Source: Raillietiella orientalis
Taxonomy: Eukaryota
Reading direction: 5' to 3'
NCBI GenBank assembly: GCA_036172245.1
Contig: JAYWIR010000002.1
Coordinates: 6,324,001 to 6,388,000 of the forward strand
DNA length: 64,000 nucleotides
In this document: positions 5,251 to 61,029 of the stretch, one piece after another
Position numbering within the stretch: the stretch's first letter is position 1
How the letters are laid out: each line of letters starts with the position of its first letter
Translations under genes and position numbers: made by a program
The notes under the pieces: generated by a model
What the model was told of the DNA's origin: nothing
What the model saw: the letters and a program-made list of their open reading frames with translations, nothing else
Database searches by the model: none

Positions 5251-6524
5251 CTAACTTGAGAAGCTGCTGACAGGGCTGTGATTATTGAGGGTGTGTCCCA
5301 GCGTGTGGTACCTAAGCACCCGAACGCTCCCAGCGTACGTCCCTGGAATGATGGACGTTACAGCACAGCACTCCTTTCTTAGTGCACCTGGTCCACCTGG
5401 CCTTTGTTTCTCTCCGAGCTTTCTCGTTTCCCAGATCCCGGAGATCCTGCAGCGGGCGCTCGTGCTGGCGACGCGGAGAGCCACTCGCCGATGCCGGCCC
5501 TCCTTCTTCCGCCTACTCTCTTGTGGAACCATTGCAGAGTGTTCGTAGGGGCGAGAGACGGCCGGCACATGACAACCTTTTTCTCGACCGGAGGCACTGC
5601 GCATAGCTCGAGCTTCCAACAGACCCCTGAGGCAGCCCGAGATGCCGGGTCTCGACACTTCCAGGCCAGTCCTCTCGATCCAGGCTGGGCCAGTCGGCCT
5701 TGTTTCTCTCTGACCAGGGTTTGGTCGTCGATGCAGCGGCTGAGGATGCAGCCTCATAATTCTTCTCTCCGTGAGTGGCGTATCTCCTGTGCATCCGATG
5801 GGCATCGTTTTCGGACAAGCTCGGAGGGATCTGAGTAAATTAGCCCCATGGCCCGATAATCGGAGGTGCTGGCTGTTGAACTGGAGTGACTCGGAGTCCG
5901 CTGCTGCTCTGTGCACCTACCCTGAGGGCTTCCCGATACGGAACGGCCATCTTCTCTTGCGTTGGATGGCGCTCGCGCTCCAAGTGGAGTTTCTCGATTT
6001 CCTCCTTCGGATGCCCCTGCTTTGCCTTGGCTTGGTCGGGCTCTCCCTCTCCTGTCGAATCTGGGAGCACAACTCATTTCCTGTCAGTTGCGACCGACAC
6101 GAACCCCCCCTCCCGTCCAGACCTCCGTCCGACTGGTGGCGGTGCCTACTATCGCTTCCTCGCCATCGCCGATCGCGTGTCGGGACAGCTCGTGCACCGA
6201 GCGTAGTCGGAAGGGTTGACTCCCTGAGGCAGCTACCCTTCGCGAGATTGTTGGACTCGTCGCTTAGTTCGTCAACCCCCACCCCACGTCGCCCCATTGC
6301 CCGGTCAGCATACTCCTTCGTCGCCTTGTGAGGCGAGTTGCCGCATTTGCTGACCGTCTCCTTGAGGCTTTTTTCTGGGAACGTCGGATCTGATCTGAAC
6401 GTTTCCAGGCACTGTTGGTGCTTGGAAGCGAGAGAGCTCTGTGCATGGCATCCGGATTCTGCCATCGGGATGACCCACAATCCTTTGTAGAGACCACCAT
6501 GGCCAAGGTCTGATGTTTGGTTGA

Positions 6525-8930
6525 CGCCCAGTTGTGCCGGGGAGTTAATTCATAAAAAATAAACATACAGGTCAGTGGCAGGACCAAGCGTCCTGCCACG
6601 TTACATCTATATACGAAAAGGAACCTGCCGAGAACCGGCGCGCAACCCGGCAAGGTTTGCCTGGGCAGCAGAGGGGGATGGGAAACAACAAAAAAATAAA
6701 ACAAAAAATCCAAAAAATTGGGAGGGTTCGGGAAATGGTCACCACTGTCTGCTGGAGGGAGTTTTCTGCATCCTTAGCAGGATGCCGGCAAGTTCCTGTT
6801 TTAAGGTTTCTAAATGGGGCCATCTTGACGCTATCTGCATGAAGATGTTAGCAAAGCAGCTGTCGTCCCTGTCGTCCTGGCCTGCTCGGTCATTGCTCCA
6901 TGCAGCCACGATCCTGTGTAGGCTGCACAGTGATGCTAGGGATGCGGCTGATGTGGGGGCGTCGTGCAGGAGGAGGAGCTTCGAAGCGATCTAGGGTTGC
7001 CTTCAGGGATCCTCAGAGACACGGAAATCGGCTCCCACAAGGGATGGAGGACAACACAATCCATGAGCAGGTGCGGAAGGGACTCTCTTTCCCCGCACCT
7101 TCTGCAGTTCGGGTTCATCTTCTCCCCCCGGGTCCAGTGGTGTCGACGGGCGGTGCAAGGGAGGCCCCAATGCAACAGTAGGAACGTCGACTATTGCCAC
7201 TTCAGAGGGAAGGATTGCACTGTTCCAGTCCGCTGTTTGGTTGGTCAGACTCATGCCCGAAAACTGCTCTCAGCTACCATCCTGCTCCAGATCGGACCTC
7301 CAGAATCTCCGTGGAGTATTTTCCCGTTACCTTCAGGATCCGTAGCCAAAGAATAGGCTCCAAAGAAGCTCGCTCCAAGAAACTTCTGAGCTCCTTCTTG
7401 TCGCGAACCTCCGACTAGCCGGAAGACGGAAGCGCAACCTGCAGCCCTTCGACGACCGAATGCCAGAGAGCAGGAAGGACTCTGCCCCAGAGGCTGCCGA
7501 CGTTTGAGCGCCACCCATCTTCAGAATTGCGAGTGAATCATTGGAGGTTTCATGGAGGATTCTTGACCATCAAATCGCTGTTCATGGAGACCAACAAGGC
7601 CTTTCCGGATGCGCGTCGCATCAGCCACCGCAACCCGAAGCTCTGACGGCGCCACTCCTAAGCATGTGTACCCATCTCCGTGATCCAGTGCTTGGACGCT
7701 TCCGTCGAACTTCAGTTTGCCTCGCTTCCCTCAGTGTGATCTCGACAAAGAACAACGACGCAAGTCTATCTGGGTCGATGGGTAGCCTGACTTTTCAGCA
7801 CTGATCATGGGGCAGGTGGGAGGTCCATCTCGTGTTCCAGCTACCATGGGAGCCATCTGCACGGGCTGGCACGGAGTCGAACGACTCACCCAGCGAGGGA
7901 CGGGAGACAAGTGGAATGGTAGGGAGCTCAGAAGCATCTCTGTTTCCCTCCCCCTGGGAATCCGATCGCCTCTTATGGCTTCTGACTGCTCATGCAAAAA
8001 CGTGTAGACATCTGTATACAGCCCCTTGATGATGTCCTCGGAGATTTCTCTCGCTTCGTCCTCCCTCGGGACCCTCTGTGACGGATCATGCTTCGAACAC
8101 GTTGGTCAGGTACACACATGTTGCGAGGTGATCTTGCAGCGCCACTGAACCTGGTTTGCGGAGCTAAGTTCAGCACGGGGACTTCATAGTAAGGCAAGAA
8201 TCCTCTTTACTAAGGGCAGACGGCCGAGGTGCCAATAAACTGCACTCGAAGTCTAGGAGGAAGGTTTTTCTCATGGAAAGGATACGCGCCGTTGCCTGAT
8301 GATCACTGTTTACGCGCATCTGCTGCTTTTGGCGTCAAAGATAATACTACCATCAGTTCGCTCTTGAGTGCTTCCAAGACGTTGGTGTTCTCCAGAACTT
8401 GTGAAAGATGCTGAAGGTACAGGCATAGCAGCCACTGGATCCAACGCTATCCAGCCATTATATGGTATTCCATTTGATTCCGGGAAGGAATTTTTGGACT
8501 TGTGTGATGCTCTAAAGCAACATCGCCCTGTCTGAGGAATGTGAAATCCTTTCAGACCTTTAGACATGACCGCTTACAATACCTTAAAATCTCGGTGACT
8601 TGTGGGTGATTCCTTTCCAAAGCCTCATACGCAATGTTCGGTTTCTTTGATGGCGGTCTTAGAATTCTTGCCAGTTGGGCCCTGGACAATCTTGAGCCGG
8701 TTGACGAGACACAACCGTCGTATTCTTGCTACGATCCATCGCGTCTATCAGCCTCCTTCCTGGCATGTACTGGTCCAGAGATCTCATGTGCCTTTCAATT
8801 CATTATTGATGGAAGCTCACTTTGAAAGCAGAGCTATTTCACTGTGCCCAACTAGACCGAGCTCAGCGCAGTCGTAGAGTCGTCTCCTCACACCGTAGCC
8901 GCCTCTGTACCTCTGGTCATTCCCTTGCAC
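6525..8930 (-). mobile_element. LINE remnant from RT to 3' end with terminal tag
   Basis: DQYMPGRRLID (~8740-8775, RT Q.GF+PGR-like); HHWTRGEKMNPNCRRCGERESLPHLLMDC (ORF 6936..7175); QIASRWPHLET (~6830); T-rich UTR; AATTAAC then tag TCCCCGGCACAACTGGGCG at 6543-6525. Confidence 0.8.
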
Positions 8931-8979
8931 TTCGTAGGAGGAAGCCACGCTGAGAGTTTTCACCCGGATATGCCGGGGC

Positions 8980-9015
8980 AAAAAATGTGGAACGCTTCAC
9001 GATTTTGCGTGTCAT
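8980..9015 (-). pseudogene. U6: U6 snRNA retrocopy, 5'-truncated (3'-terminal 36 nt)
   Basis: Minus strand ATGACACGCAAAATCGTGAAGCGTTCCACATTTTTT is the U6 3' end (the variant I recall for Drosophila; vertebrate U6 has AAATTCG...CCATATTTT). Insert 8957-9020 is flanked by the perfect direct repeat GGAAGCCACGCTGAGAG (8940-8956, 9021-9037). Confidence 0.93.
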
Positions 9016-9816
9016 GACGTGGAAGCCACGCTGAGAGCCAGAGACGTGGCTTAACGAAACAGCAATGTGTAAGAAAAAATAAATCTTAATCGTGCAGTGG
9101 TATACTCAAATCGCCTCAGTCAGGTAGTTTATTGTCATGACATCTTTTGTAGGACTTTGGGAGTATCATGCTGGGATCTATGAAATCTACAGGGAGAGAA
9201 CATCTTTGTTCATCTTTGCTCTTCATGATAGAAGTAGGCATCATTCTGATCACCGTCAATGGCACCATCGCGTGGCGGTTGATGTTATAAGATGTTTTCT
9301 TTTGTCGGAAGATGTTGAGTTGTGGAAGAACAGAAAGCAATGTGGTTTCTGGCAGGAGGTATCTTCCTCGTATCTCTACGTGGGGCCGTCTCCATCACCC
9401 ATAGCCTCCCGTGATGTACCCCGAATTTCGCTGCTGTCCATCCATCGTACCAGGTATCAGTGCAGAAGTGTAGACTCCGATTGCTACTTCTATATCGACA
9501 ACGTCCCACTGCCTCCCTAGTGCCATCCTACTCCCTATTGGTTTCTGAATTCCTACCGAAGCAAGGAGGTTCGCCGTTGTTCAGAAGAGCTTTTCGTTTT
9601 CCATGAAGAAGGGGAGCGAAAGACCGCAGAACCTGTGGCGCAGACAGGAAGTGTTCAGGAACACAGGATCCGTCACTCGATTCGCTCATGTTCCTCGTCC
9701 GGCGAGGTTGGGAGGAAAATCACTCTGAGCGACAGTTCCATCGTTCCGTGCCGGACTCGACCCTTTCAGGAAAGTGTTCAAAATCGCAGCGGAACTGTTG
9801 AAACACGCGAGGGAAA

Positions 9817-10500: not shown

Positions 10501-10668
10501 TCTCAAGTGCGAATAAACATGGAGAAGAGAGAAAAAAAAGCGGGAAACAGTGTGGAGGGGAATCTGAGATCCCTCAATTTCTAGGCAGAACAATGAAACT
10601 TTCTCTCCATCCCGATTTACCATCATGCGCCTACGACACCTCCACTGGGTCCCGACTTCAGAAGAGCG

Positions 10669-11983
10669 TTCTGTGAACCTGCACACCTCACCCTTCATAG
10701 ATGCGCCGGCAGCGAAGGACTGCTCTCGTTGTTCTCGAGCACCCGTTACAGGATACCAGGATTTGAATTCCCCCAGGTTTCAAGCCTCCCTAGTGGAAGC
10801 CCAAGCCGAGTGTCTCTTGTCCCTGAATGAACTTCAATGGCTGGCGGCAGGAGGCTCTTGAATACTGAGCTGCATCCAGGGAATACGCCCAGAGGAACTG
10901 TGCCCATTGCGGTGCTTCCTACCACGACCTTTAGGAGAAGTAATGCAGGACACGGCGAAGTGGTCCAGCCTGGCCACCACATCTCCCAAGGCCTTGCTGC
11001 AGCACTGTCTGCCCTGAGGGCAAGCCACAACAGCTGCCAGACGGAGACGAGCTGAGAGTTTCCTTGCAACATCGCGGGGGAGGGAGGGACAAAACTTCTT
11101 GGAAGACGCGCGGGTTGGCAGATGCCGCCACTCCGCGTGCTGCGGAGACGGGACTCCTTCGGTGGAGTCCACTTCTGACGAAACTTCTGCGCTCCCTCCC
11201 CAATGCCTGGACGCTTCTGTGTTTCCGCTCTCCTGAGAGCAGGTTATGCTGCTCTTTCCGCACTGGGGTTTCAGGGCAACGAGCACCGGCACCCTCATTC
11301 CCCCCCGAACTGTTGTTCCTGGTGGAGGTCGGCGGAGTCGATCCCGCCGCACCTGCTTTCGGACTGTGGTGCCATGCGGGAACCGTGGGCGGAGGCTGGA
11401 GTCAGCGCTCCCAGGAGACCAGGAGAACATCGCACGCGACCTGCCGCGCCGGTTCTTCGCGCCGGGAGGACTTTCGACGGGCACGGCCATCGCGATGCCA
11501 TCGTCACGGCGCGCCGTGTGCTCGAGAAGGCCACGCGGCGAAGGGAGGTCACCGGGATGGCAGCCGCCCACGTGAGACGGCTGCAAGGTAGTGTCACCTG
11601 CAAGAGGAAGACAAGGAAGAGATCTCCGGCATCCAACGCCGGTCCTGAAGTGAAGGAGCGGCGGACACCGGTGACCCTTGACCCGAGCTTCCCTTTATTT
11701 TATTTTATTTTTTCTCTCATTTCCCACTCCTTTGCGTTCCGCACCTATCCCGGTTCTTGCACATCGATCCCGGTGTATGCGAACCCAAAGACACATTATA
11801 TTTTTCCTTTATTTATTTATTTTTTTAGTCGCCCTCTCCTCTCCCATTCCGGACGTCACGATATCCCGAGTTTGGTATAGGAGCACCCATCCCCTTAGCT
11901 TTTTTTGTCTTACGTAGGGAACCAGCGTGTTCCCAACTGGCTTCTTTTCATAAAATAAACGCCCCGATGTGACAGAGTAGAAA
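10669..11983 (+). mobile_element. 5'-truncated LINE 3' fragment with TSD and terminal tag
   Basis: CSWWRSAESIPPHLLSDC and MAAAHVRR; UTR; AATAAAC then tag GCCCCGATGTGACAGAGTA (11961-11979); TSD ACTTCAGAAG(A/G)GCG at 10655-10668 and 11984-11997 (1 mismatch). Confidence 0.85.
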
Positions 11984-12149
11984 ACTTCAGAAGGGCGAAG
12001 AAGCGTCTCATCTGATAGCGGACGCAGGCTTCTGCGACCGCTATCAGAGTCCATCATCTGAGTCCATTTGCGGCCTCGGAAACCGTGCGCCAAACTTCAC
12101 CTCGCCTTGATCATCTTCCAGGCGATCCCTTGCTCATCGTGTCTTCGAC

Positions 12150-13072
12150 GGAGTCTCCCTCTTCATCCCCCTAGTCCTCTTGGTGCGTTTCGTTTGTCTT
12201 GGATTCGGAACGTGTTGGGGCAGGAAATTCTTCTTGTGTGTTCGAGAGGATCGCTCTGGTCATGAACGTTCGTTCTCTGAGTTTTCTCGTCCGGCTTGCT
12301 TTCTATCTCTTTTTCTCGCCTTCCAAATCACCTCCTTCATTCATCTCAATCAGTGCCATCGGTCCAGCCTCCATCACAACTCAGTTCCCTTTCCTGGGAT
12401 TTTCCATTGTCGATTCCACCTTCCACTCCAAGATCTTCATCCCTGAAGGTTTCCGTGACCTTCCTGTGAGCTTTTGATGTTTGTCTCCACTTTGCTTTAG
12501 CGACAGCAGTCTCTTCTATTGGAGGACGGAGCCGCCGAGATTGGAGGAGTCCCTCCAGAGGGAAACTCATCTCTCCTATGAAAAGGATCCGTTCCTGGAA
12601 TTTATTCACCGAAGGCAACCCGCAAGGAAACTGCCCTTTGTTACACCTCTGAAGAGGACACCAAAGGGACGCTGCCAAACGTCTCTGTAGAATGCTCCCG
12701 GAGGGAGCAGCGCTCTTCTTGGCACCATGGGAGAGGCAGTTCCCTCCGAGGGGGATATCAAATAGCTCCATGGATCGCTTACGTTTCCCTTTTGATAACT
12801 GGAGGAAAATAAGAAAAATTCTGATTGGAACCTGCGCTCCTTGTTTTTTGGATGGACCCCGGAGTCGACTCCCAGTTCCATGCAGCCAACGGGGACATCT
12901 GGCTTCCGCTAACGCCACACTCGAAGCCCACAGGCCAACCGGCGTCATCCTGAGCGGGTGAGGGGACTCGGAATCCCCTCGACTCGCCCCACTTTTCTCG
13001 GAGTTGATCTTCTCCGGGAGGGATTCGAACCTGTGACTCTGGTGCCACCTGCAGAGACCTCAGTCACACGGC
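12150..13072 (-). mobile_element. Family B element with tRNA-like head
   Basis: Perfect B-box GGTTCGAATCC at 13031-13021; ATG at 12771 (MELFDIP); MKEVIWKARKR at 12340-12308. Confidence 0.7.
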
Positions 13073-13379
13073 TGTGGAAGTAGGTATACATTTACAGTTG
13101 TTAGGACAGGCTCACCTGCAAATGCACAAAAGTTCTGCAACGCTGGGACCGATAAGGAGTGCTAATAGTTCCTTTCACGCTGGATTCTCTCTGGTTGGCG
13201 CAAGAGCGCCCGCTTTCCGAAAAAGAAAAAAAAGGTGCAAGGACCGCTCCAGCTTCAGAGTATTTGGAGATGGAGGTTTGCCTTCTGGGCCATTGGGTGG
13301 AGGCGAATTCGGAACGAGGATTTCCCGGAAGCTTCTCGCGAGAATACGGGCTTCGGGAGCACTGCTGTCAGGATGGCAT

Positions 13380-14463
13380 CGCGCTTAAGCTGCTGCACAA
13401 GGATTCTCTCGCGCTGCGGCAACTTCAGTGCAAGTCACTGGGAGATCTCCAGGACTAGACGCAGTGGTTTCGGATAGCTGTCTCGTCCACTGCCGCAGCA
13501 CTGTCTGCAAGTAGCAGCCAACCGGAGGGGTGGAAGTTGTCCTGAAACATCGCAGGAGTCGAAAAGCTCCTCGACGACTGCGAAACGAGCGAGCTGGTGG
13601 ACGATGCCACTCTTCATTCCTGGATGAAGGGAACCCTCCGGTGAAGTGACCTGCTCGGTGTGCCTTTCCAGGGAGCCGTGGTTATTGTCCTGTGCGCGGA
13701 GACTTCTGCTTTTCCGCTTCGTTGGAAACCACAGGATTTCCTGCTGTTTCCGCACTGGGAACTTCCAGTGCAACCGGTGCAAGCACCTCGTTTCCGGGAA
13801 GCTGCCTCCTGTTGCCGAACTGCTGTTCCCGCACTTCCTGCTGGACTGCAGCGCCCGGAGGACACGCGGTGGAGACTTGCTTCGACGCTCTGCAAGATAC
13901 TCCTTTGGACTTGCTGTGAGACGGCGCTGTTTGACAGAAGGCGGGCTGAGAGCAGGCGTTGTGAAGGCAAGGAAGCAAAAGGTCAAATACAAGAAACCGT
14001 TTCTCCTCTTCGTGGCTAGAGGAACTCCGGCTTCGTTGAAAATGCGAGTGGCAGGATGTCTGCTGCATAGCAACAGTCCGCGTTGTGGCGGTCATGTTCT
14101 CAGCGAGGGGAGGTCACCTGCATGGCAGCCGTCTTGATGAGGATGGCTAGGAGGTGGTGCCTCGCCTGCCAGAAGTCAAAGAGATCGACACCATACACAG
14201 ACGCTTCTAGGGAGAAAGGAACGTCTTAAACCAAAGACTCCCTACCCTCCAGTCTTTTTTTTATACTCATTCATTTTCTCCTTCCCCCCCTTCCGAAATT
14301 CCCTGAAAGCCGGGCTACGTCTCGAAGGTAGTTCTCCTTGAACTCCTTTTTGCTGCTACAGGTTCTGTACCTGTACTCCGCGTCCCCCGATTTGTAGGGC
14401 ATTGTCCCCTGATTTGTAGTTTATTTATTTTTAAATAAACTTTCCAGCGTGACAGGGTACAAA
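13380..14463 (+). mobile_element. LINE 3' fragment with terminal tag
   Basis: CNRCKHLVSG...ELLFPHFLLDC; MAAVLMRMARRW (~14122); AATAAAC then tag TTTCCAGCGTGACAGGGTA (14441-14459) CAAA; followed by a short paralogous piece at 14490-14590. Confidence 0.8.
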
Positions 14464-14899
14464 CAAGAATTTTTACGAAGGTGTGGAGGGAAGCGAGGCA
14501 AAGGAAGGAGGTCAAATACAGGGATCCGTTTCTACTCTTCACCACTAGGGGAGCACCGGTTTCGTTAGGAGTGCGAGTGGCAGGGTGCCTGAGACCGGAA
14601 GAACGGAAGGCTTTGCGCGGAGAGCCCGAGATCGCACATACCCAGGGAAGAAGGAAGCACGGAGGAAACGGCGTCCACCAACGTCCTGCAGATCCGGGAC
14701 ACTTGCCGGGAATGCATCTGGCGTTAAGGACTGTCAATGAGCTTGCGGTAGGACGAGAGCGAAAACCGTGGGACTACCAAATGATCGCTCCAAACGTGTG
14801 CCTGGAAGGAGCTAAACTTCTGGAAATTCGAACGAAACTCCTGCAGCTGGGCGGCAGACTACTCACTCCAATTCGAGGTCTGAGGTCGCTCACTGGTGG

Positions 14900-17313
14900 C
14901 GCGGTGAGGGATGGCACAGCCTCCCTATTGCACCGCATTCAGATGCGGCCTGAAATCCGGAAGAAGACACACAGGAGAAGACACACCCGGAACTCAAATT
15001 ATGCTTCAATCAGGGCAGAGAGCCATTTTTGTCGGGCTCTCCGAAGGGTGGCAGTGAGTCCACGGCCGTGTGTCGTTCCAGGGTCCGCCTGGATGCCGTC
15101 AGAAATCCCTGCTGCCTCTTCCAGTTCGAAGGCGATGGCGCCCTTGACAAGAAAAATCCCCAATTGTGGCTCGGAAATCAGATCGTGGGATTCGCGCTCC
15201 CACCAGTGGGAGACCCTGGATAGCTCTCTGGTTTGGTGCTGGGCAGAAGAGCGGACCTCGGCCGAATGCAAGGACTCACGTTCATCTCGGTGCTCAGTAA
15301 TCTGCAATTCGTTTCCCGAGCGCTCTGGAGGGCGCTCTGGTACTGGGCGGCTTTTCCCTTCTGGTGGAGTCCGGCACCGAGGGTTGCCTTTGACCGGCTC
15401 ACCAACCTCAGCCGGTTCCAGTCAAACCCCGAAGCAGCTGCCACCGCTCTTCCTTTACTGTTGTTCAATGAAGTCACATGACGCCCCTCGGCGCGAAATA
15501 CCTGGCGTATTCCAGAAGCCGAACCCGTCGGCAAGTGCTGAAGAAGAACGAGAAAGCGTCAGCAGAATGAAGTGGGACCACTTCCTCCATTTCGTCGTAA
15601 TGACCGCCGTCTTACCCGGGGAAGACAGAAGACCTCACGGGCAAGAAGGATGGGGGGCAAGCAACAATGGAAAACCCGCAACTTTGGAAGCATCCCCACA
15701 ATTCCCGCGCCTTCGGGAGTCAAGAATGCAGAGACCGCTCCGATCGTGGGAGCAGGCAGCTCACTCTCGTATGGCGACTGGGAACTCCGGTCTGCGAGTG
15801 CCAGCTTACCGACACTTGCAGCCTGCAGACCTGGACTGCACGGCGGATGTCGGGAGATGCAGGTCTTAGCTGGAAGGCTGACGTGGATCCGCTCGCTGGC
15901 AAGAATCTTTCTCCTGCAGATGCTGATCGGTGTCAGCACCACCAGACGTTCCACTCCTTCCGGGCACGCATTTGTGGGGCTCACTTGAAGTCTACGATTC
16001 CCACTGTCGTCCTGTCGGAGACTCGCTGACAGTCCTTCACGACAGTGAGTCTCCAGCGAGTGTCCTGGCTAGCCGGCTAGCCTGGCTAGAGAAGTGCTAC
16101 AGCAACCCCTGGATGCGTTCCTGCGTGCCTCCTCGCCAGTCTTGAAGCCGGAACCGAAGAACTTGCGCCTTTCCTCTTGTGTTCCGGGTTGAACGGTGAA
16201 AAGGTCCTCGAGCTGAGAAGGTTGGGAAGGACGCGTAACAACCAAGGCGGAGAAAGGATGGCCTATTGGCCCGCCAAATTCAGCGCTCAGATAAAAGAAA
16301 CTGTTGGCACGTGAGCGAAGTTGGAGGAGCCCAGCTGGGAGCGGTGGAATTGTCGGCATCCAGTCCCCCTGCTCTCTGCGGAAGATCCTGGAGAGTCCCG
16401 ACATGAGCACGTGGGTGAGCAGACCACCCTCGCGTCAACGATGCTCTTCCTGAGGAGGGCACTTGTTGGCAGACAGAGGTCGATGTGGGAAGTCTCCTGG
16501 GAGATCGCAGGCACGCGGAAGCTGATGAGCGGATGGACAATGGGGAAGCTGGCGGATGCTGTTACCCCGAGTGTCCCTCTACGAGGATTACAGCGCTGGG
16601 ACGAGCTGCTCGGCATCCCATTCGAAGACCCAGAGTGGCCCACAGTGCTCAAGGACAGTAGCGCCGTCCCCCTGAAGTGCCCAGAGTCGGCACTTCTGCA
16701 CTGGCGTCATCCTTGCAACGCACTCCGACACCACTGGACGCCGGGGAGCGCAAGCCAGGACCGTCGCAGGTGCGGGGAACAGAAATCCCTCGCGCACCTG
16801 CTTGTGAATACCGTGTTGCCTTCAGGTCACTGCAGGAATGCTTTGGCACGACCCTGCGGACCCCCCGACGGCAATCCCACGGACGTTCTACAACTCCTCT
16901 TCACGCGGGAATCCCTTTCGCCAGCCGCAGCCTTTGCGGCTCTTTGCTGCATCCGTGAGATCGTGGCGGTCTGGAGAGACGGTGAAGAGGAATCGAGCGA
17001 AGCGGACGCCCCACCCAGCTTGCAGTTCTTTTTCTGCGGACGGAAGCCAGATGGCTTCACCTGGGACCTATTCAGACGGACATTGCCGGCATCCCGGAAA
17101 GGATACTCAGGCCTCACCAGGGGGCAGTGATTCCTTCCCGACCCTCTGCAGTTCATTTTATTTTATTTTATGCTTCTCCCTCCCCTCCGGGCTATCGGAC
17201 AGGCAACCCAGCAGGTCTGTGGACGAACTGAGTATGGTGGGATAACGTGTCCCATCACTATTGATGAGCTTATTTTACATTTTAGTAAACTCCCCGGCCT
17301 GTCCGGGTGAAAA
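14900..17313 (+). mobile_element. Decayed LINE RT-to-3' end with terminal tag
   Basis: FVSRALWRALWYWAAFP...LPLLLFNEV (RT-like), SASAEEE in place of (Y/F)ADD, RRRCGEQKSLAHLLVN; AGTAAAC then tag TCCCCGGCCTGTCCGGGTG (17291-17309) AAAA. Confidence 0.8.
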
Positions 17314-17410
17314 TCGGAGACATCCAGGATGAGGAGTTCCCTCCCACGCGTGAGAGGAACGGAGTCCCTCCTCTGGAACCCTCCCTGGATTCAAAGGGGT
17401 ACCCGCTATC
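17314..17410 (+). repeat. Family B internal fragment
   Basis: GGAGACATCCAGGATGAGGAGTTCCCTCCCACGCGTGAGAGGAACGGAGTCC aligns to the minus strand of ~29375-29315. Confidence 0.6.
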
Positions 17411-17610
17411 TTGAGGAGTCAACACGCACCCTCGGGTGGCGGGAGAGTAGGCGCTTTAACATCGTGTGTTAAAGAAGTGCGTGAGCCGCTATGCATACGA
17501 TGGTTTCTGAGGTGCTTGGCGAATCAAAAAGGCAAAAAAAAAAATAAAAGTTTGAAGGAAAGCAGCCAAGACAGAAAAGAATTCAAACGAATTTCCATCA
17601 TCCTCTCACC

Positions 17611-18862
17611 CTTAGGAAACTCGCCCTCGCGGCGAAACTATGCACCATGCCCTGGTGCACACCAGCACGGCTTCTCGCGAAGAGCGCAACCGGCTGCGAG
17701 GGACTCACATCTTTCCTAGTCGCTCGCGAGAGATTGCTGAGGCGTTGCGAATGCCCACCAACTCCATAAGACGGTTTCTCTGGTGGAGGAGAACACCTAG
17801 ATCTCCTGCCTCCCGCGAACTGCACTGCAACCTGGCTACAGGAGTCAGTCTTCGACTGGAGAAAGATCCACGGTTCGAGCGAGGCGTTAACATTCGCAAG
17901 CCGTTGAAGATCATCCGTAACTCGCAGAAGATGCGGTGGGCCTCGTCTACCCCTCTTGCCCCAGTGCTGCGCTCTCCAAGGAACGCAAAGGGATCCAGCA
18001 AGGTGGGAGGTGACTTGCTTCATAACAGCGAAAACAAAACTTCTGGGGGCGTGGACAACTCGGGAAGTGACGGACGCTGCGACTCCGAGTGTCCCACCAC
18101 ACGGACTTGTACGCTGTGGAGAGCTGCTTGGCATCTCTCCAGAGGTGGCGAAATGGCCTTCAGCGTGCTAGAACAGTGTAACTTTCCCCTTCGTGTGGCA
18201 GGAGTTGGTGTTGCTTGTGTTACATGGGGGAATCCCGTTCAAAGCGCGCCTTCACCACTGGACACGGGGGAGCGTGGACACAGTGCGACAGGTGGGGGAA
18301 GAAGGAGACCATCCCGCACCTGTTGTTGGACTGTGCTTCCCTCTGACCTCCTTGCGATCGCCTCGCGACGATCCTAGGAACCCCAGCGGACGACCCCAGG
18401 GATATTTTCCGACACCTCCTTGTGAGCGGTGCCGCACTGCCGCCAACCGCGTTTCTCGCACTCTGCTACGTCCGCGGAATCCTGACAGCCTGGAATGCGG
18501 GAAGAAGAGGTCGAAATGGCAGGTACGGCACCCGCTGGGCGCGGATCTTCCTGAGGACTGCCTCGAGATGGTCCCTCCTGGGCGAGACACAGACGGAGCT
18601 TGCCAGCGTCCTGATAGGATGCCGAGGACGCCTGGTAGTGTACCGTACCGTGTCCTTTCCTCGGTTCTCCCCCTCCCCGTTTTGTGTGTTTATTTTTTTT
18701 TGCTTTTGTTTTCCCTTTCCTCCACGCTGTCGAGGCAGATCTCGCCAATCTGCGTACCACTCTCTGACAGGTTCCATGCATGTGGTAGAACCAAGTGCTC
18801 TACCCACACCAATGTATCTTCATTGCTTTATGTAATAAATGCCCTGGCATAACCGGGTGAAA
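17611..18862 (+). mobile_element. 5'-truncated LINE 3' fragment with TSD and terminal tag
   Basis: RLHHWTRG... zinc-finger region, LRTASRW end motif; AATAAAT then tag GCCCTGGCATAACCGGGTG (18841-18859) AAAA; TSD AT(C/T)ATCCTCTCACC at 17597-17610 and 18863-18876. Confidence 0.85.
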
Positions 18863-21329
18863 ATTATCCTCTCACCAGGGTGGTCACGCCAGACGCGGAG
18901 CGCCCGCACCTCTTGAGCGAGGTAGGAGGAAGGAAGGAAACCGGGGAAGGCACTTAGCATCTCCGGGTTGGCAGCGAAAGGCTCACCGCGGGCCGACCGG
19001 ACCTTTTAAAGAGGACGGCGAGAGAGGCGCGGCCTCTAGAAGAGCTCGCCGAGCCTGCAACTGCACCACCACTGCTGCTTTCTACTTCGTGGGAACTCGT
19101 CGGTACACGGGAGTGTTTCTATGGGAACTGCCCTGGACTGCCCACTCGTCTCCCCCTCCACACCACTACAATGCCTTCGCTACCGCCACCGGCGTGTATC
19201 GAACTCGCCAGCAAGGTGGGAGGGGACAGCAAGGAGGTTGACGCCTTCTCCTCCATCATCCTTGACGGTTCCTTCATTGACATCTCGAGGTCGTCAGCTT
19301 GTGGCGATGACCGCTGGGGACGACCTCTCGTCTCTTGTGAACGGAGCTTGGTACCAGTACTCTTCTGCGGGCGGTGCCGGACGATCACCTTTGTTTGTTC
19401 GGCATCATTTTCCTGAGTGATCGGTGGAGGGCTCCGCTGAGAATCTTTGAACCGGGCATCCCGCCAACAGAAGGACGAACGGCAGCACTGAGCAGAACCA
19501 TCGAGGAAGAAGGTGAGGTCCATTGGCGAGAGGAAAGGAGAGGGAAAGAAGAGTCGTGGGAGAGGGAGACCAGCAAGAGAAGGAGGCGGCCTCCGCGGAT
19601 AGTCATCGTCGTCGACCCAGAATGCCCTCGTTCTGGAGCAAGGTTTGAAGGCTCCGCCTTGGCAATACCCGCGTTTCCAGGAAGCAGTAGCTGCTAGAAC
19701 GGAGGACAGAGGACACCCTGATAGTTCTCTTTTGCAGAAGATCCTCTTCGTGCGGACCCGTGGGACGAAGCACGCTGGAGTCTAAGCTCGGAGCCACCAC
19801 ACCCATCGCTGGCTCCGGCACGGGAATGCTCGGCACGGGAAGAGGCCGAGGAGGGATTTGCTCCAGCTGCTCCCTCGAACGAGCAGCGGCGGAAGACCCA
19901 AAAAGAGGATAGAGACGGATGCTGCCCCGAGTATCGAGCGCGGTATATCTCTTGTGAGGGCCGTCGCGCAGGACGGCAGAGGGACAACTCGCGCCTCGAA
20001 TGTCAATGAGCTGTGCAGCGACGGCCCGTGTTGCCGCGTGCCGAAGACGGCGGGCATCACCCGGCAGCATCGAGCATCGGGAGGTCTGCGTTTTTTCTTT
20101 TTTTAAGACGCGCTCTCGGTCCGCGCCCCGAAGGGGGGGGGGTAGCGACCGAACGCTCCTATCACAGCTCGCACTTTCCCGGAATTACCTGAGACTGCAG
20201 ATCGCAGCTCAACTACCGACCGCTCGCGTCGCATTCTTTCTTCTTTCCTTTTTTGCGCCCGAAGTTGCCCTGGAGACCTGGTCACCCTTCACCCCATCCG
20301 TCAACCGCCTCAGGAATCGAGGCAGCCCTGAAGACGCTTCCTCAGCACCTCCCCCCCCCTCCCCCGAAAATCCTCTTCCGTGCGCGCGATTTGTTTCTGC
20401 AGCAAAAGGAGAGAAAAGAGCCTCCTCCAGGTTCGCGCGTCCCGAACGGGATCCCGCTCGGCAGCCCGGGATCGACGCAAAAGGGACCGCATCGTCCTCG
20501 GAGAAGCAGGAAGCAGTGAGATTTCTTTTTAACGATGGCCGGACCGCCCGCCGACTCGGCGTTCGCTTCACGTCGTCCCTGCAAGAGCACCTCGTAGTCT
20601 TCCGCTTTGCCGGTCCAGGCAGGATCGGCAGCGCCACGTTCGAGGACGGGAGAGGAAAGGGAAGATTGTTGGTTGGAAACTACTCCTGGCCCATGATCTA
20701 ACTGCGAGCAAGCGGCGGGCTGACCCTGCCGCACGCTCGCAGTTAGATCGTTGTCGCTGTGGCGATCGCGAGGGGGTAGATTGTTCCCTCTGGGGAAGAT
20801 TCTTCGAGGTGACAGCAAGCAGGAGCTTTCCTGGATCCAGCAGCCTCGCATGCAAAATTCGGAAGCGTCACCTGCACGCGTGTTCTCTCAGGGGTCGTCA
20901 CATTCTCTCGGCCATGGCCGCGTAAGAGAAGATACGGAAGCTGCAATAGAAAATTCGGAAACGGAGGGTTCCACTTCGCTTGGCTGCAATACATGCTCAG
21001 TCTATAAGCGGTAAATATAGTAGGTCACCTACAAAAGAAATGAAAGGGTTTGGGATATGAAGGATACAAGGTGAGAGACATGCTTTCGTTTTCCTGTCAG
21101 AAGAATTCTAAGGGCACCCCACTCCCGCTCCGGGAAGGAATGTTAGAAGATTTCAAATAGATCGCTGGTCTGCTGAGGATACGGCAAACATCAGGGATGT
21201 CTTGCATCTGCCACATGTGCATCCTTCGAAGCTGATGCTCTTTGGAAGCTGATAGGATGAGCACTCTCTGTCGACTCTACAGATAACAAGATGTTTCAAA
21301 GATGATCGTTGTCATGGCGTTCTTCTGAA

Positions 21330-26965: not shown

Positions 26966-26999
26966 GTCGTCTGTCCCCAGGCTTAGGTGTTGCCTCCCT

Positions 27000-28883
27000 T
27001 GGAGCGTTTATTGACAACAAGAAACTCACAACTTCTGTGGTGGGACCTTCAGTCCCCACCACAGCCAATTCTACAAGGGTCTGCCGGATTCCCGGTACAC
27101 GGAACAGTGACTGTCACCTCGGCAGCGGTGGGAAGGAGGGAAAACAAAAAGAAAATAAAACAATAAATAAAAATAAATAGAAAACATTCTGGAAGATCGG
27201 AAGGGGTCACATGTCGCTTTGTCCTTTGCATCCTTTCCAGGATGCCGGCAATGTCCGTCTGAATAGGTCCCAGGTGAAGCCATCTGGCTTCCGTCCGCAG
27301 AAAAAGAACTGCAAGCTGGGTGGGGCGTCCGCTTCGCTCGATTCCTCTTCACCGTCTCTCCAGACCGCCACGATCTCACGGATGCAGCAAAGAGCCGCAA
27401 AGGCTGCGGCTGGCGAAAGGGATTCCCGCGTGAAGAGGAGTTGTAGAACGTCCGTGGGATTGCCGTCGGGGGGTCCGCAGGGTCGTGCCAAAGCATTCCT
27501 GCAGTGACCTGAAGGCAACACGGTATTCACAAGCAGGTGCGCGAGGGATTTCTGTTCCCCGCACCTGCGACGGTCCTGGCTTGCGCTCCCCGGCGTCCAG
27601 TGGTGTCGGAGTGCGTTGCAAGGATGACGCCAGTGCAGAAGTGCCGACTCTGGGCACTTCAGGGGGACGGCGCTACTGTCCTTGAGCACTGTGGGCCACT
27701 CTGGGTCTTCGAATGGGATGCCGAGCAGCTCGTCCCAGCGCTGTAATCCTCGTAGAGGGACACTCGGGGTAACAGCATCCGCCAGCTTCCCCATTGTCCA
27801 TCCGCTCATCAGCTTCCGCGTGCCTGCGATCTCCCAGGAGACTTCCCACATCGACCTCTGTCTGCCAACAAGTGCCCTCCTCAGGAAGAGCATCGTTGAC
27901 GCGAGGGTGGTCTGCTCACCCACGTGCTCATGTCGGGACTCTCCAGGATCTTCCGCAGAGAGCAGGGGGACTGGATGCCGACAATTCCACCGCTCCCAGC
28001 TGGGCTCCTCCAACTTCGCTCACGTGCCAACAGTTTCTTTTATCTGAGCGCTGAATTTGGCGGGCCAATAGGCCATCCTTTCTCCGCCTTGGTTGTTACG
28101 CGTCCTTCCCAACCTTCTCAGCTCGAGGACCTTTTCACCGTTCAACCCGGAACACAAGAGGAAAGGCGCAAGTTCTTCGGTTCCGGCTTCAAGACTGGCG
28201 AGGAGGCACGCAGGAACGCATCCAGGGGTTGCTGTAGCACTTCTCTAGCCAGGCTAGCCGGCTAGCCAGGACACTCGCTGGAGACTCACTGTCGTGAAGG
28301 ACTGTCAGCGAGTCTCCGACAGGACGACAGTGGGAATCGTAGACTTCAAGTGAGCCCCACAAATGCGTGCCCGGAAGGAGTGGAACGTCTGGTGGTGCTG
28401 ACACCGATCAGCATCTGCAGGAGAAAGATTCTTGCCAGCGAGCGGATCCACGTCAGCCTTCCAGCTAAGACCTGCATCTCCCGACATCCGCCGTGCAGTC
28501 CAGGTCTGCAGGCTGCAAGTGTCGGTAAGCTGGCACTCGCAGACCGGAGTTCCCAGTCGCCATACGAGAGTGAGCTGCCTGCTCCCACGATCGGAGCGGT
28601 CTCTGCATTCTTGACTCCCGAAGGCGCGGGAATTGTGGGGATGCTTCCAAAGTTGCGGGTTTTCCATTGTTGCTTGCCCCCCATCCTTCTTGCCCGTGAG
28701 GTCTTCTGTCTTCCCCGGGTAAGACGGCGGTCATTACGACGAAATGGAGGAAGTGGTCCCACTTCATTCTGCTGACGCTTTCTCGTTCTTCTTCAGCACT
28801 TGCCGACGGGTTCGGCTTCTGGAATACGCCAGGTATTTCGCGCCGAGGGGCGTCATGTGACTTCATTGAACAACAGTAAAGGA
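27000..28883 (-). mobile_element. Inverted duplicate of 15451-17104 with a different 3' UTR
   Basis: 27240-28883 appears to be the exact reverse complement of 15451-17094 (ends checked; multi-frame ORF translations identical); own UTR ending AATAAAC at ~27006. Confidence 0.9.
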
Positions 28884-29850
28884 GGAGACCACAAGGTAAT
28901 TCAAGTACCTTGTGGTCTCTGAAGGGGACTCCAAAGGGGACCTCTGGCTTATTCTCTTCGGAGGAACCCCTTAGGGATCCTGGCTCCACTGTTTCTTCTC
29001 CGAAGGGAACCCGGAATTTCGAGATGCGATCGGCGCAAAACCGGACAGGTCACCATCGCTCCCGGCAGCTTGTCCTGTGCTTCTTCCTCCCTCCACACTT
29101 CGCGCGCTTCCAAGTCCGGCAGCCCCCGACGCCTCTTCCATTCCAGGAACTGCATCTCGCGGCATTCCCCTAGGATGACTCCTTTCCCTCCGTGAAGATT
29201 CCTCTTCCCGCCTTCCACACTGTCCGTGCCACCCAAGGGTGCGTGCGGACTCTTAAAGTTAAAAGAAGGATCCCGGGGGACCACCCTATGGAATACAGGA
29301 AGGTCCTGGAGGAAGGAATTCGTTCCTCTCTCACTCTTGGGAGGGAACCCTCTCCCTGGTTGTCTCCGGAGGGAACCAGGAAAAGACCCTCGCCTTGTTA
29401 CCCTTCTGAAGAGAACCCTGAAGGACCGCTCACGAATCTCTCTGGATGGCTCTCCTCGAAGGGAGCAGCGCGCTTCTTGGGCATTCTGGAGAGGCAACTC
29501 CCTGAAGGGAATACCAAACAGTTCCATGCTTCCCGGTGGAAGGTCTCCCCCCCGAGGAAAGGGAACGGCCCCATTTTCTCAACCTGGAGGGAGCTCCAAA
29601 GAGAACTGACTCCTCGATTCCTGGGAAGAGTCCCAGAGGGTTGACTTCCAATCCCGAAGGCCAGTCAACGGGGACATCCAGCTTCAGCCAGTGCTGCCGC
29701 ACACGAGACCCGTGGGTCAACCAGCGCCGTCTTGTGGGGAGAGTCGAAACCTATGATACAGTCCTCATTCTCGGGGCGTCGACCTTCCCCCTTGGCGAGA
29801 TTCAAACCCGCGACGCCTAGAAAGGTCTCCTAAGAACTAACTCTGCGGCG
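28884..29850 (-). mobile_element. Family B element, longest copy
   Basis: Head GGCGTCGCGGGTTTGAATCTCGCC at ~29817-29794; ATG at 29527 (MELFGIPF...EIRERSFRVLFRR). Confidence 0.7.
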
Positions 29851-30606: not shown

Positions 30607-31657
30607 CGTCTCATTCCCCGGCCAGTTCTAATGACCTCGGTGAATCGTCAAGGCAGGTCTTCCCCATGGATCGGGGAGGGGGCAGCACTTTGGGGTTCTT
30701 CCGCCGGCCTCCCGAGGCAGGGGAGTCGGCCGATCTCCCGCTCCTTCCTCTGTCGCGTCCGGGGACGGGATCGGAGCGTACAGCAACGCCGTCCAGAGGA
30801 ATCCCTCGAAAACGCGGCTCCGGGAAGACGGGACAGGACCCCTTCTCGACGGCCGCGTGGGAGAGGGAAACCGCCGCCTCAGCAGCGAGTCGTGTCCCCG
30901 GGAGACGACCTGCGAAGCGGAGCTCCGTGTAACGCCCAGAAATCCTCGAACGGAGCTCGAAGGCACCTATCGCAAGCGCAGTCTGGAAACATCGGTCCCG
31001 GGGGTTCTCTCTGAGTGGGAACCAAAGGAGAACTCCGTGGGTAGAAACCAGACACTTCCTTGAGGTCTGGATTCATCCCCATCCTCCCCCCAGTGAAGCC
31101 TGTAGTCTTAAGCGACCTCTCTTCTCCTTCTTCCCATTCTCTCGCCTATTTATCGGGGGTGGGTGGTTTTTTAAACTATTGCAGTCAGCCGGGACGACCG
31201 AGTTCATCCATGAGGGGTCGGGAGGTCGACAACGGCGCTCGGCCGGACCTCCGACGCGGGAGTTCGTGGAGATCAGATAAAGCCCCTCCCACCGATCCTG
31301 CCTTCCTGCTCCTGCTCTTCCTCCTCCTTCCTTTCTCTTTTTTTTTTCTAGAGGAGGGGAGAGGTGCAGTCGGAGATCTCCTGGAGCTCACGGGAGGGAG
31401 AAAAACAGTTTTCCGTCTCGAGGTGTCCAACAGTGGTCGCTTCCTCCTCGCAGGAGGAGAGAGAAAGAGAAAGGGAGAGGGTGGGAGGAGCCGATCCCGT
31501 TCCCGACGCGACAGAGCAAGGAGCAGGAGATCGGCCGACTCCCCTGCCGCGGGGGGCCGGCGGAAGAACCCCAAAGTGCTGCCCCCTCCCCGATCCATGG
31601 AGAAGACCTGCCTTGACGATTTACCGAGGTCATTAGGACTGTCTGGGGAATGGGACG
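30607..31657. repeat. ~167-bp inverted repeat pair (about 90% identical) around a ~715-bp spacer
   Basis: 30607-30774 vs reverse complement of 31491-31657; ORFs 30537 and 31185 share SSRQVF.MDRGGGSTLGFFRRPP. Confidence 0.9.
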
Positions 31658-32224: not shown

Positions 32225-32489
32225 CCACGCGTGCTGCTGTAATCCGCTCCCTGCTCTGCGCGCGCCCTGCTTTTGAGCGCGCTCACAAGTGTTTCCAGAG
32301 TCCACATGCAGCGTAGCGAGCATGCTGTATGGGCGCATGCCACAGGCACACGCATGCATGTTGATGAATGGCAGGTGTCGGGAATCCCGCATCTGCATGA
32401 CCCGTGTTCCGCGGAGCCACGAACCCCCGCATGTCAGACCGTAAACCGGTTGTTCGGGATGCCATCGTGGCGGGTTCAGGTTGAAAGTT

Positions 32490-33555
32490 CGCTCGGTCAC
32501 GTCGGGGAGTTTATTTTATGAAAAGAAGCCAGTTGGGAACACGCTGGTTCCCTACGTAAGACAAAAAAAGCTAAGGGGATGGGTGCTCCTATACCAAACT
32601 CGGGATATCGTGACGTCCGGAATGGGAGAGGAGAGGGCGACTAAAAAAATAAATAAATAAAGGAAAAATATAATGTGTCTTTGGGTTCGCATACACCGGG
32701 ATCGATGTGCAAGAACCGGGATAGGTGCGGAACGCAAAGGAGTGGGAAATGAGAGAAAAAATAAAATAAAATAAAGGGAAGCTCGGGTCAAGGGTCACCG
32801 GTGTCCGCCGCTCCTTCACTTCAGGACCGGCGTTGGATGCCGGAGATCTCTTCCTTGTCTTCCTCTTGCAGGTGACACTACCTTGCAGCCGTCTCACGTG
32901 GGCGGCTGCCATCCCGGTGACCTCCCTTCGCCGCGTGGCCTTCTCGAGCACACGGCGCGCCGTGACGATGGCATCGCGATGGCCGTGCCCGTCGAAAGTC
33001 CTCCCGGCGCGAAGAACCGGCGCGGCAGGTCGCGTGCGATGTTCTCCTGGTCTCCTGGGAGCGCTGACTCCAGCCTCCGCCCACGGTTCCCGCATGGCAC
33101 CACAGTCCGAAAGCAGGTGCGGCGGGATCGACTCCGCCGACCTCCACCAGGAACAACAGTTCGGGGGGGAATGAGGGTGCCGGTGCTCGTTGCCCTGAAA
33201 CCCCAGTGCGGAAAGAGCAGCATAACCTGCTCTCAGGAGAGCGGAAACACAGAAGCGTCCAGGCATTGGGGAGGGAGCGCAGAAGTTTCGTCAGAAGTGG
33301 ACTCCACCGAAGGAGTCCCGTCTCCGCAGCACGCGGAGTGGCGGCATCTGCCAACCCGCGCGTCTTCCAAGAAGTTTTGTCCCTCCCTCCCCCGCGATGG
33401 TGCAAGGAAACTCCCAGCTCGTCTCCGTCTGGCAGCTGTTTTGGCTTGCCCTCAAGGCAGACAGTGCTGCAGCAAGGCCGTGGGAGACGTGGTGGCCAGG
33501 CTCGACCACTTCGCCGCGTCCTGCATCACTTCTCCCAAAGTTCGCGGTGGAAGAA
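32490..33555 (-). mobile_element. Inverted paralog of ~10920-11979
   Basis: 32509-33399 appears identical to the reverse complement of 11070-11960; about 11 mismatches over the next ~145 nt; tag TCCCCGACGTGACCGAGCG (32508-32490). Confidence 0.9.
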
Positions 33556-58145: not shown

Positions 58146-59311
58146 GTCGGGAGGGAAGCGGGGATCCTAGAGCCGGACACCAGGACGCAGATCAAAGAAA
58201 TGCCAACCCATACCTTGAACCTCCAGGGAGTGAAGGACTCTCCGGCGAAACTCCCGGAGCCACCAGAGGGGCCGGCGCAGCAGCTGCTAGGAATCCCCTC
58301 CAGCGGCTTCAGGATTCTCGCAGGGAAGACCGGAGGCGCTGGGGGAATCCGGGCGAAGGGAAGGGTCGCGCCAAACATTCCCCGACAGCTGATGAGTTGC
58401 ACGGCGCGGCGGGGGCTGCTTCCGGCCGCCAGCTGCTCCACCGACCACATCCCGAGCTCAAGCGCAGGCTGCACCTGATCTTCCCCCCGGCCACGGGGAA
58501 GGAACAACCGGATCGAACTCTTCATCAGTGCCACGGGATTTGCGCTTCCAGAGTCGCAGAGTTATGACCAGTATCGTGCTCCAGCCCGTTTCCGTCGTGG
58601 GAGGGGCAGCCCCATCAATCCAGGCGGAAGGGCACCATTCCAGCAATTCATAAATTTCAAGGGGGAGAAATCAAGATCCCGGCTCCCGGAGTCCAGAGGA
58701 AATCTCCAGGGTCCGGACGCGAGGTCGGACGTCGCGATCAATCGCGCTGCGCGGGAATCCGGAAACTTTCTCCCGGCGGACGCATGCAGGGAAAGCAGAA
58801 ATTCCCTCCCCATCTGGAGTGAGGAGAGAGCGGGAGGCAATGGAACCGGTCGAGGTCGTGAGGACGTTTCCAAGCTTCAGAGTTATGGCCATGAGGAGCA
58901 ATGAGGAGGCCGCCGGGATTCGAAGCGATCCTCCACAGAGCCCCTCTCCGTGAAGGAGGCCGAACGAATGATGCGCCTTAGTAGAGCAAGATGCATGCTA
59001 AGGCGTGGACGTGGATCCAGGGGCTCCTTCTGACATCACCGACCACCAGAGTCACGTGTAGCACACCCGGAAAGTTTCTTCCTCCTCTGGAGCCTAAGAA
59101 AGCGTGCTTCTCGGTCACAGTGCCAGACGGACTCCATTCCCGGATAGGGTAAAGGTGTAGGTGGACCTGGCAGCCGCGGGCGGGGTGGTCGCCAAAGCAC
59201 GGGTAAAATGAGAAGATGCTGAGACTGGATTCAGCGGAAGAAATGAAGAACAAATAAATAATTAGGGAACCATCTGGAAGAGAGAGACTCACCCACCCTA
59301 CCAAGAGTTAT

Positions 59312-59907
59312 CACCCGGGTGCGTTGGGGCGTTAGTTTAATGTAAAAGTGAACCTTTACAAAGACCACATGGATTTCAACGGGAACCTGCCGGTATGTAG
59401 GTTTGCCACGGAAGCAGTGAGGAGGGGGAAACAAAAACACAAGGAAACAAAAATAAAAATAAATAAATAAACTTTAAGGGATAGTGGGGTGAGGGAAGCG
59501 GTCACGTTTTGCTGGGGGTGGTCCTCCGCATCCTTTCGAGAATGACAGCAAGCTCTTTCTGTATGCAGTCCTTCAAGTGGGGCCATCTTGTTGCCATCCT
59601 CATGGAACTGACGGCGGAGTGGATGTGAGACCCCTGTCTCTGTGCCCTCTTCTTGAGCCGCTCCAGACCGCTACAATTCCGTGTGGCCAGCAAAGAGCTG
59701 CTAGCGAGGCCGCGGGCCTAAGGGTGTTGCGAACGAAAAAGGGTTTCAGAGTGTCCCTGGAGTTGCCGCCGGGGGTTTTCCTTTGGGTCGCAGCAAAGCA
59801 TTTCCAGAGGGGCCGGAGGGCAACACAATTCACAAGCAGATGCGGGAGGGATTCGCGCTCCCCTCATCTGGCACAGTTCGGGTCCACACACCTTCGTGTC
59901 CAGTGAT
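59312..59907 (-). mobile_element. LINE 3' fragment with terminal tag
   Basis: GERESLPHLLVNC, MRMATRWPHL; AACTAAC then tag GCCCCAACGCACCCGGGTG (59330-59312). Confidence 0.85.
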
Positions 59908-60750: not shown

Positions 60751-61029
60751 CGAAGAAATTCGCTGGAGGAAGGATCTGTGGGGTCGGCAGAGCTCAAATG
60801 ATGGTCTTTGGCTTGGCTTCACGGGTGTACACGAACGTCGGATCAGGTCTGTTCAGGCTCTGCATGGTGGCAGGAAGAGAGAACCCTTTGACATTTTGCG
60901 AATTTCGTGAAGGACATTCAGATGTGATTCTCTGGAAAGACAGTGCAACTGACAAATGCTTCTTTTTCTTTTTTGAAAAAGAGCCGTTGATGCTGAGGCG
61001 TTTATTAAATAGAAAATAAACCAGTTTGG

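Follow-up and report, generated by a model that had tools for sequence, protein, structure and literature searches.

A 64-bp insert on the minus strand of the window (the whole 64,000-nt stretch of DNA that was analysed) joins the 3′-terminal 36 nt of U6 spliceosomal RNA to the 3′-terminal 23 nt of an abundant retroelement, and both parts lie within one perfect 17-bp target-site duplication (TSD). The evidence supports one retrotransposition event, in which U6 was linked by its natural 3′ end to the very 3′ end of this resident retroelement. The composite occupies 8940-9037 and, read on the minus strand, is made up as follows.

9021..9037, minus strand: 5′ copy of the TSD, 17 bp, CTCTCAGCGTGGCTTCC (read from the sequence; repeat search)
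9016..9020, minus strand: extra ACGTC at the 5′ junction, not part of U6 (sequence; Rfam alignment)
8980..9015, minus strand: 3′-terminal 36 nt of U6 snRNA, ATGACACGCAAAATCGTGAAGCGTTCCACATTTTTT, 5′-truncated and ending in six T (RF00026 positions 71-105)
8961..8979, minus strand: 3′ tag of the retroelement, 19 nt, GCCCCGGCATATCCGGGTG, with a possible 5-bp hairpin CCCGG/CCGGG (tag match; model R1)
8957..8960, minus strand: AAAA, the end of the element tail (copies C, E and A end in the same AAAA)
8940..8956, minus strand: 3′ copy of the TSD, 17 bp, CTCTCAGCGTGGCTTCC again (sequence; repeat search)

The two copies of the TSD are identical at 17 of 17 positions, and the 17-mer occurs exactly twice in the window at 0 mismatches, against 0.03 occurrences expected and with two occurrences in none of 100 shuffles. 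The window has three perfect direct repeats of 17 bp or more whose copies are separated by no more than 200 bp; the TSD is one of these, the other two are located at or beside tandem arrays, and the TSD is the sole such repeat outside tandem-array regions. It encloses the whole composite, and neither internal repeats nor an inner TSD were found within the 64-bp insert. A single perfect TSD around both parts, with no inner repeat, implies one integration event, and a perfect TSD accompanied by an intact tag shows that the element family was active recently. The insert itself carries no promoter and is a non-functional, dead-on-arrival by-product.

The U6 part was recognised by the Rfam U6 model (RF00026), positions 71-105 of which align to 9016-8981 with a score of 21.6 bits and an E value of 0.0057 when 601 nt are searched; in a search of the whole window the same match has an E value of 0.6 and is thus not significant alone at that scale. 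The gathering score, 44, is out of reach because the match covers just one third of the model, the other two thirds of U6 being absent. All of the strongly conserved U6 consensus positions match (AUGACAC, GA and UUUUU), and the stretch is nearly identical to the 3′ end of human U6. An initial annotation, made from the sequence, had described a perfect 17-bp TSD around the last 36 nt of U6 ending in six T, and both parts of that description are borne out. Allowing up to 3 mismatches, the window contains no second copy of the U6 36-mer, and Rfam returned no further U6 match in it at E ≤ 1. At gathering score the window contains 0 Rfam RNA genes, and at E ≤ 1 only 3 weak matches were obtained across it, with no other small-RNA fragment adjoining a tag. 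In the insert the natural oligo-T 3′ end of U6 is directly joined, with a 1-nt ambiguity, to a retroelement 3′ part; U6 is present as 36 nt only and not at the full length typical of L1-type chimeras.

Copies of an abundant retroposon family, apparently TSD-flanked and variably 5′-shortened, regularly end in the tag at their 3′ terminus. Tails were sought in the window by regular-expression scans, by listing all AATAAA sites and with a covariance model, R1, built from ten tags. Compared over 23 nt, the sequence at the end of the insert found 0 matches in 100 shuffles and is most similar to two tags on the plus strand.

18841..18863, plus strand: closest tag, 2/23 mismatches, ending the ~1.25-kb copy E and preceded by AATAAAT (sequence match)
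17291..17313, plus strand: tag of copy C, 3/23 mismatches, preceded by AGTAAAC and an upstream hairpin (sequence match)

Model R1 identified 13 sites in the window at E ≤ 0.063, comprising the 10 training sequences and 3 new ones.

59308-59330, minus strand: tag site outside the training set
60226-60248, plus strand: tag site outside the training set
6521-6543, minus strand: tag site outside the training set

The tag of the chimera is the best match to R1 (30.1 bits), but it is among the 10 sequences from which the model was built. Two further tails with decayed tags, both on the minus strand, were recognised from AATAAAC and upstream homology: that of copy D (near 27005) and one near 60999-61006. 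The 64 kb hold 14 non-chimeric tails, and in 14/14 an AATAAAC-like motif, with a T-rich stretch upstream of it, precedes the tag; the motif is exactly AATAAAC in eight tails, and in the other six it is AGTAAAC, AATAAAT, AATAAAAC, ...AAACTAAC, ...AAACAAAT or GAATTAAC. Only one of the 15 tags, that of the chimera, is preceded by anything else. The base directly before the tag is C in 12 of the 14 tails and T in 2, and after the tag come 2-4 A in most copies, these A-runs being short and fixed. A specific 3′ terminus with a short terminal run and no long poly(A) is thereby common to diverged copies. As 20 nt separate AAUAAA from the A-run, the tag may be no more than the end part of a transcript that follows its polyadenylation signal. 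In a metagenome scan with the AATAAAY-tag pattern, 2 loci of the same sequence were found and were rejected as chance, since they lie in bacterial-like coding DNA without the T-rich 3′ region; a scan of viral contigs with the tag pattern, which has 17 specified bases only, gave 8 loci.

The copies to which these tails belong have bodies in at least two lineages that are only ~60-70% alike, one containing A, B and the copies that end near 14460 and 26594, and the other C, D and E. Copy E, a relative of C and D, is 62% identical to D over the body. The four copies compared in pairs below are located as follows.

10915-11984, plus strand: copy A
32487-33553, minus strand: copy B
15447-17313, plus strand: copy C
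26990-28887, minus strand: copy D

With their candidate TSDs, varying 5′ ends and short, fixed A-runs, the non-chimeric copies look like TPRT products. For copy E, the candidate TSD at 17597-17610 matches the 3′ flank at 13 of 14 positions, and for copy A the candidate at 10655-10668 does so equally well (13/14), the match in each case starting at the end of the A-run; by our own arithmetic, a 14-mer with 1 mismatch is expected ~0.02 times per copy when 8 kb and 14 offsets are searched. Other, weaker TSD matches may be due to chance. The window as a whole (1-64000) is gene-poor and built of repeats, with at least 15 retroposon tails. On the plus strand, 10655-18876 carries four copies head to tail, with ends at 11984, ~14464, 17313 and 18863. 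Copies A and C have minus-strand counterparts in B and D, at the similar spacings of 3.47 versus 3.6 kb, although a large inverted duplication accounting for A...C and D...B was rejected, the intervening DNA being unrelated.

The element was called a LINE in the initial annotation, and in this respect nothing in the window shows it to be one. A Pfam search of 382 stop-to-stop ORFs of at least 90 aa, covering the whole window (119 of at least 150 aa and 263 of 90-149 aa), returned 0 families, and neither an RT nor an endonuclease domain was found in these 382 ORFs. The non-LTR class is assumed here from the anatomy of the copies, which would suit a LINE and a LINE-type enzyme. A 271-aa ORF (16315-17130) stops 160 nt short of the tail of copy C. 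It was suspected of being a diverged LINE ORF2 C-terminus, but no credible homologue was found: there was no match among longer proteins, and the sole marginal match (E 3e-4 among 1.84 billion representatives), a repetitive one to a 4282-aa protein with 35 matched stretches, was rejected as evidence.

Structure in the tail was considered at two places. The CCCGG/CCGGG hairpin of the tag (5 bp, -8.1 kcal/mol) is not unusual for its composition, given a z score of -1.6 and a fold at least as stable in 17 of 200 shuffles. Among the ten aligned tags, none of the 5 pairs changes on both sides in a compensatory manner, and paired cells make up 78% versus 78.2% in shuffles; in decayed copies the stem is just broken. 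A second hairpin is located 26-36 nt upstream of the tag in 8 of the 14 copies, for example at 6575-6599 (minus strand), 17234-17258 (plus strand) and 27034-27063 (minus strand), with stems that differ from copy to copy: GGGAAC/GTTCCC, GGTAGA/TCTACC, GTGGCAGGAC/GTCCTGCCAC and CTGTGGTGGGG/TCCCACCACAG. A stem score of at least 9 was reached by 4/14 copies versus 1.5% of 2000 random 63-nt segments, and a score of at least 6 by 8/14 copies versus 27% of random segments. In the 3′ UTR, this upstream hairpin may be what is really recognised. The U6 chimera does not have the hairpin seen in 8/14 copies, which argues against the tag as the whole recognition signal. The tails resemble those of stringent-type LINEs (Hayashi et al. 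2014, PMC4176376), as these are characterised in the part of that work drawn on here, in that diverged lineages share a 3′ terminus which is short and conserved, could fold into a hairpin and closes with a short run; they differ in that the tag hairpin shows no covariation and recognition by an element protein is putative in the present case.

U6 ends in six T, the tag begins with G, and their joint can be placed with a precision of 1 nt. A T (AATAAAT) stands before the closest tag, that of copy E at 18841, so either U6 or the element could have supplied the sixth T; microhomology at the junction amounts to 1 nt at most. Read on the minus strand, the chimera contains neither AATAAAC nor any other element sequence beyond the tag and AAAA. 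The initial annotation had noted this absence, had correctly counted 2 differences in 19 positions between this tag and that at 18841, and had placed the junction on the boundary at which element copies pass from AATAAAC to the tag; the junction does lie there to within 1 nt, and all 14 of the other copies make that passage at the same boundary. Its wording that U6 was fused exactly to the first base was too strict: the joint is at tag base 1, with an uncertainty of 1 nt owing to the sixth T.

We propose that the insert is a chimeric retrocopy that was made in a single event by the machinery of the resident, non-LTR-type element, through a template switch from element RNA to U6, an explanation that we hold to be probable, if by no means assured. 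Reverse transcription would have been primed at a nicked target site on element RNA, and the terminal AAAA and the 19-nt tag would have been copied first. On reaching the AATAAAC/tag boundary, or 1 nt short of it, the enzyme would have abandoned its template, and synthesis would have resumed on the natural 3′ end of U6, in its U-tract, to stop after 36 nt of U6 had been copied. Finally, the cDNA would have been joined to the upstream end of the target with 5 filler nucleotides, and staggered cleavage of the target would have yielded the 17-bp TSD. The choice of a template switch over prior ligation of the RNAs, like this order of events, is our reading of the anatomy of the insert and of four considerations. 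Published chimeras of the same architecture have been read as products of template switching, mosaic copies in the window are consistent with frequent exchange of templates, U6 is 5′-truncated, and a chimera without the upstream hairpin fits a start on complete element RNA better than the recognition of a ligated U6-tag RNA; not one of the four points is decisive. Weighing against the proposal are microhomology of 1 nt at most at the joint, the lack of any RT or endonuclease domain in the 382 ORFs, a tag hairpin supported neither by covariation nor by folding energy, and the E value of 0.6 for U6 at the scale of the window. If a switch did occur, 23 nt of its own tail are all that the element need copy before its reverse transcription passes on to a cellular RNA, and it is from this basic step that SINEs are believed to arise.

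Because a single event is available, a template switch is indistinguishable from reverse transcription of a U6-tag RNA that had been ligated beforehand, and the ligation-first scheme, though unlikely in our estimation, is the alternative that fares best. According to this scheme, an RtcB-type ligase would join the 2′,3′-cyclic phosphate of U6 to the 5′-OH of an element fragment cut at the AATAAAC/tag boundary, and the chimeric RNA would be reverse-transcribed in cis from the tag, with 5′ truncation occurring inside U6. The natural oligo-U end of U6, here six T, is as this scheme predicts, human U6/L1 pseudogenes made in this manner having 5-7 T and TSDs of 6-19 bp in the portion of the report on which we rely (PMC6789731), and a specific site of cleavage would account for a junction that falls on a recurrent boundary. 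Neither a cleavage site nor a ligase is in evidence here, however, and for a ligated RNA without the upstream hairpin, recognition would have to rest on 23 nt alone. Moreover, U6 is of full length in the human cases described there (PMC6789731) versus 36 nt in the present insert.

A different role for the boundary was envisaged in the initial annotation, which held that a discrete ~23-nt tag RNA, either a cleavage product or an initiation template, can be appended to cellular RNAs and suffices to mobilise them. On this view, the RT would copy the tag RNA as far as its 5′ end and from there pass directly to the 3′ terminus of whichever RNA it met. The AATAAAC/tag boundary would then be an obligatory joint even in ordinary copies of the element. 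The comparison of copies A and B bears on this idea. These differ at 13 positions in the first 155 bp and at none in the following 891 bp (11070-11960), and after the C of AATAAAC they differ at 5 of 19 positions, starting from tag base 1 (11961). The U6 junction and the change in A and B from 0/891 bp to 5/19 nt differences are thus two independent observations on the same base, and the tag is common to lineages whose bodies are far less alike. The A/B pattern can reflect a tag that was exchanged or mutated separately, or gene conversion that homogenised the core of inverted copies ~21 kb apart; core conversion is the simpler reading, and the 155 bp at the 5′ end differ too. Over 1658 bp, copies C and D share 99.9% identity, and over the last ~210 nt they are far less alike; both nonetheless retain an upstream hairpin, a T-rich stretch and an AATAAAC-like motif at their ends, a pattern that is apparently a 3′-end swap between lineages. 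The A/B break fits the boundary of the initial annotation and the C/D break, ~210 nt from the end, does not, so exchange points are not confined to the edge of the tag. Either the family recombines often during reverse transcription, or nearby inverted copies have gene-converted their cores. A broader form of the idea would make the boundary a dedicated joint and the last 23 nt a separable module, whether a discrete small RNA or a fixed release point of the RT, which is copied first, is re-assorted between lineages and at times becomes attached to a cellular RNA, U6 being an example. We find this broader form decidedly unlikely, and the narrower one, in which a discrete tag RNA is passed to any 3′ end, a shade more so, there being only a single chimera. 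A discrete ~23-nt RNA and a tag sufficient to mobilise cellular RNAs both rest on that one event and are not supported as stated.

An origin as the 5′-truncated copy of a multi-copy, U6-headed SINE, in which a master U6 gene or retrocopy with a downstream tag was mobilised repeatedly by the element, likewise has little to recommend it. Such an origin agrees with the classical model, in which a SINE is born when it acquires a LINE tail, and the run of six T between U6 and the tag, which would terminate Pol III, speaks against it. SINEs with snRNA-derived heads do exist, as SINEU documents in the portion of the report that concerns us (PMC4494074), but the window has a single U6 36-mer when up to 3 mismatches are allowed, and no further U6 match at E ≤ 1. 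Finally, that the insert is not one chimera at all but two successive insertions, read-through from a U6 gene into its flank (which the initial annotation had named as evidence against its own interpretation) or a chance resemblance has hardly any probability, for despite the weakness of the U6 match taken alone at the scale of the window, one perfect TSD encloses both parts, positions 71-105 of the U6 model with 21.6 of the required 44 bits do not constitute a gene, and the tag matched nothing in 100 shuffles.

The chimera belongs to a kind already described in platypus, lizard and human genomes; what is particular to it is the 23-nt element part, the long perfect TSD, the unclassified partner and a probably non-vertebrate host, the CpG o/e of 0.88 being a composition that we take to be unlike that of bulk vertebrate DNA. 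Chimeric U6/L1 pseudogenes of mammals were reportedly described by Buzdin in 2002. In the literature that was searched, few cases are documented outside vertebrates and Magnaporthe. The partner of U6 in platypus is L2 or Mon-1, and almost all of 40 U6-L2 chimeras have a 5′-truncated U6 upstream of a short L2; U6 chimeras of Anolis involve L1, L2, RTE and a SINE, and the authors read the chimeras of both species as template switching, to go by the sections of that report used here (Doucet et al. 2015, PMC4476161). The present insert is like these in combining a 5′-truncated U6 that has its natural 3′ end with a short piece of an element of the specific-tailed LINE type, flanked by a TSD (PMC4476161). 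It is unlike them in that its partner is unclassified, no RT having been seen, and the element part is only 23 nt; its TSD of 17 bp also compares with TSDs of 1-9 bp in 72.5% of the 40 platypus chimeras (PMC4476161).

In the mammalian U6/L1 chimeras, as they are presented in the part of the report cited, full-length U6 ending in 5-7 T is followed by a variably truncated L1 within TSDs of 6-19 bp (Moldovan et al. 2019, PMC6789731). The oligo-T end of U6 is directly joined to an element 3′ part in these chimeras and in ours, each representing one event; in contrast to their full-length U6, variable L1 with poly(A) and demonstrated RtcB ligation (PMC6789731), our insert has 36 nt of U6 and a tail of 19 nt plus A4, and its mechanism is the one that we infer above. 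A non-vertebrate precedent is provided by MINE of Magnaporthe, in which, according to the passages of the report drawn upon, a non-coding RNA is fused to the 3′ part of a 5′-truncated LINE/SINE within direct repeats of 10-20 bp, and for which switching at specific, preferred template sites was reported (Gogvadze et al. 2007, PMC2104539). MINE and the present insert have in common a cellular non-coding RNA and a retroelement 3′ part, although the 5′ partner in MINE is the 1.1-kb WEIRD RNA rather than U6 and its copies are many (PMC2104539). SINEU illustrates that heads derived from snRNAs can found SINE families (Kojima 2015, PMC4494074, in the portion used here), and it too combines an snRNA-derived 5′ part with a 3′ part recognised by a retroelement. 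Unlike SINEU, which is multi-copy with U1/U2 heads and poly(A) (PMC4494074), the present chimera occurs as one copy in 64 kb and consists of a U6 3′ fragment with no promoter.

The 5′ junction of the insert also bears a trace that could relate to its joining. The filler ACGTC and the last two bases of the TSD together form CCACGTC, which recurs 27 nt upstream at 9049-9043. Recurrence of a 7-mer no more than 60 nt upstream on the same strand was seen at 0.9% of 20000 random positions, a figure to be read with the fact that CCACGTC was noticed post hoc. Possibly the filler was templated from the flank during 5′ end joining. About half of the copies of zebrafish ZfL2-2, a stringent LINE, have extra nucleotides at the 5′ end, as stated in the part of the report cited (PMC4245944). 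The target site contains an 8-bp inverted repeat, AAGCCACG (9052-9045) and CGTGGCTT (9030-9023). Across the window, GC content is 48-62% per 2 kb and TpA o/e is 0.44. A longer inverted repeat, of 168 bp with 92.9% identity and arms ~700 bp apart, lies at 30607-30774 (plus strand) and 31491-31657 (minus strand).
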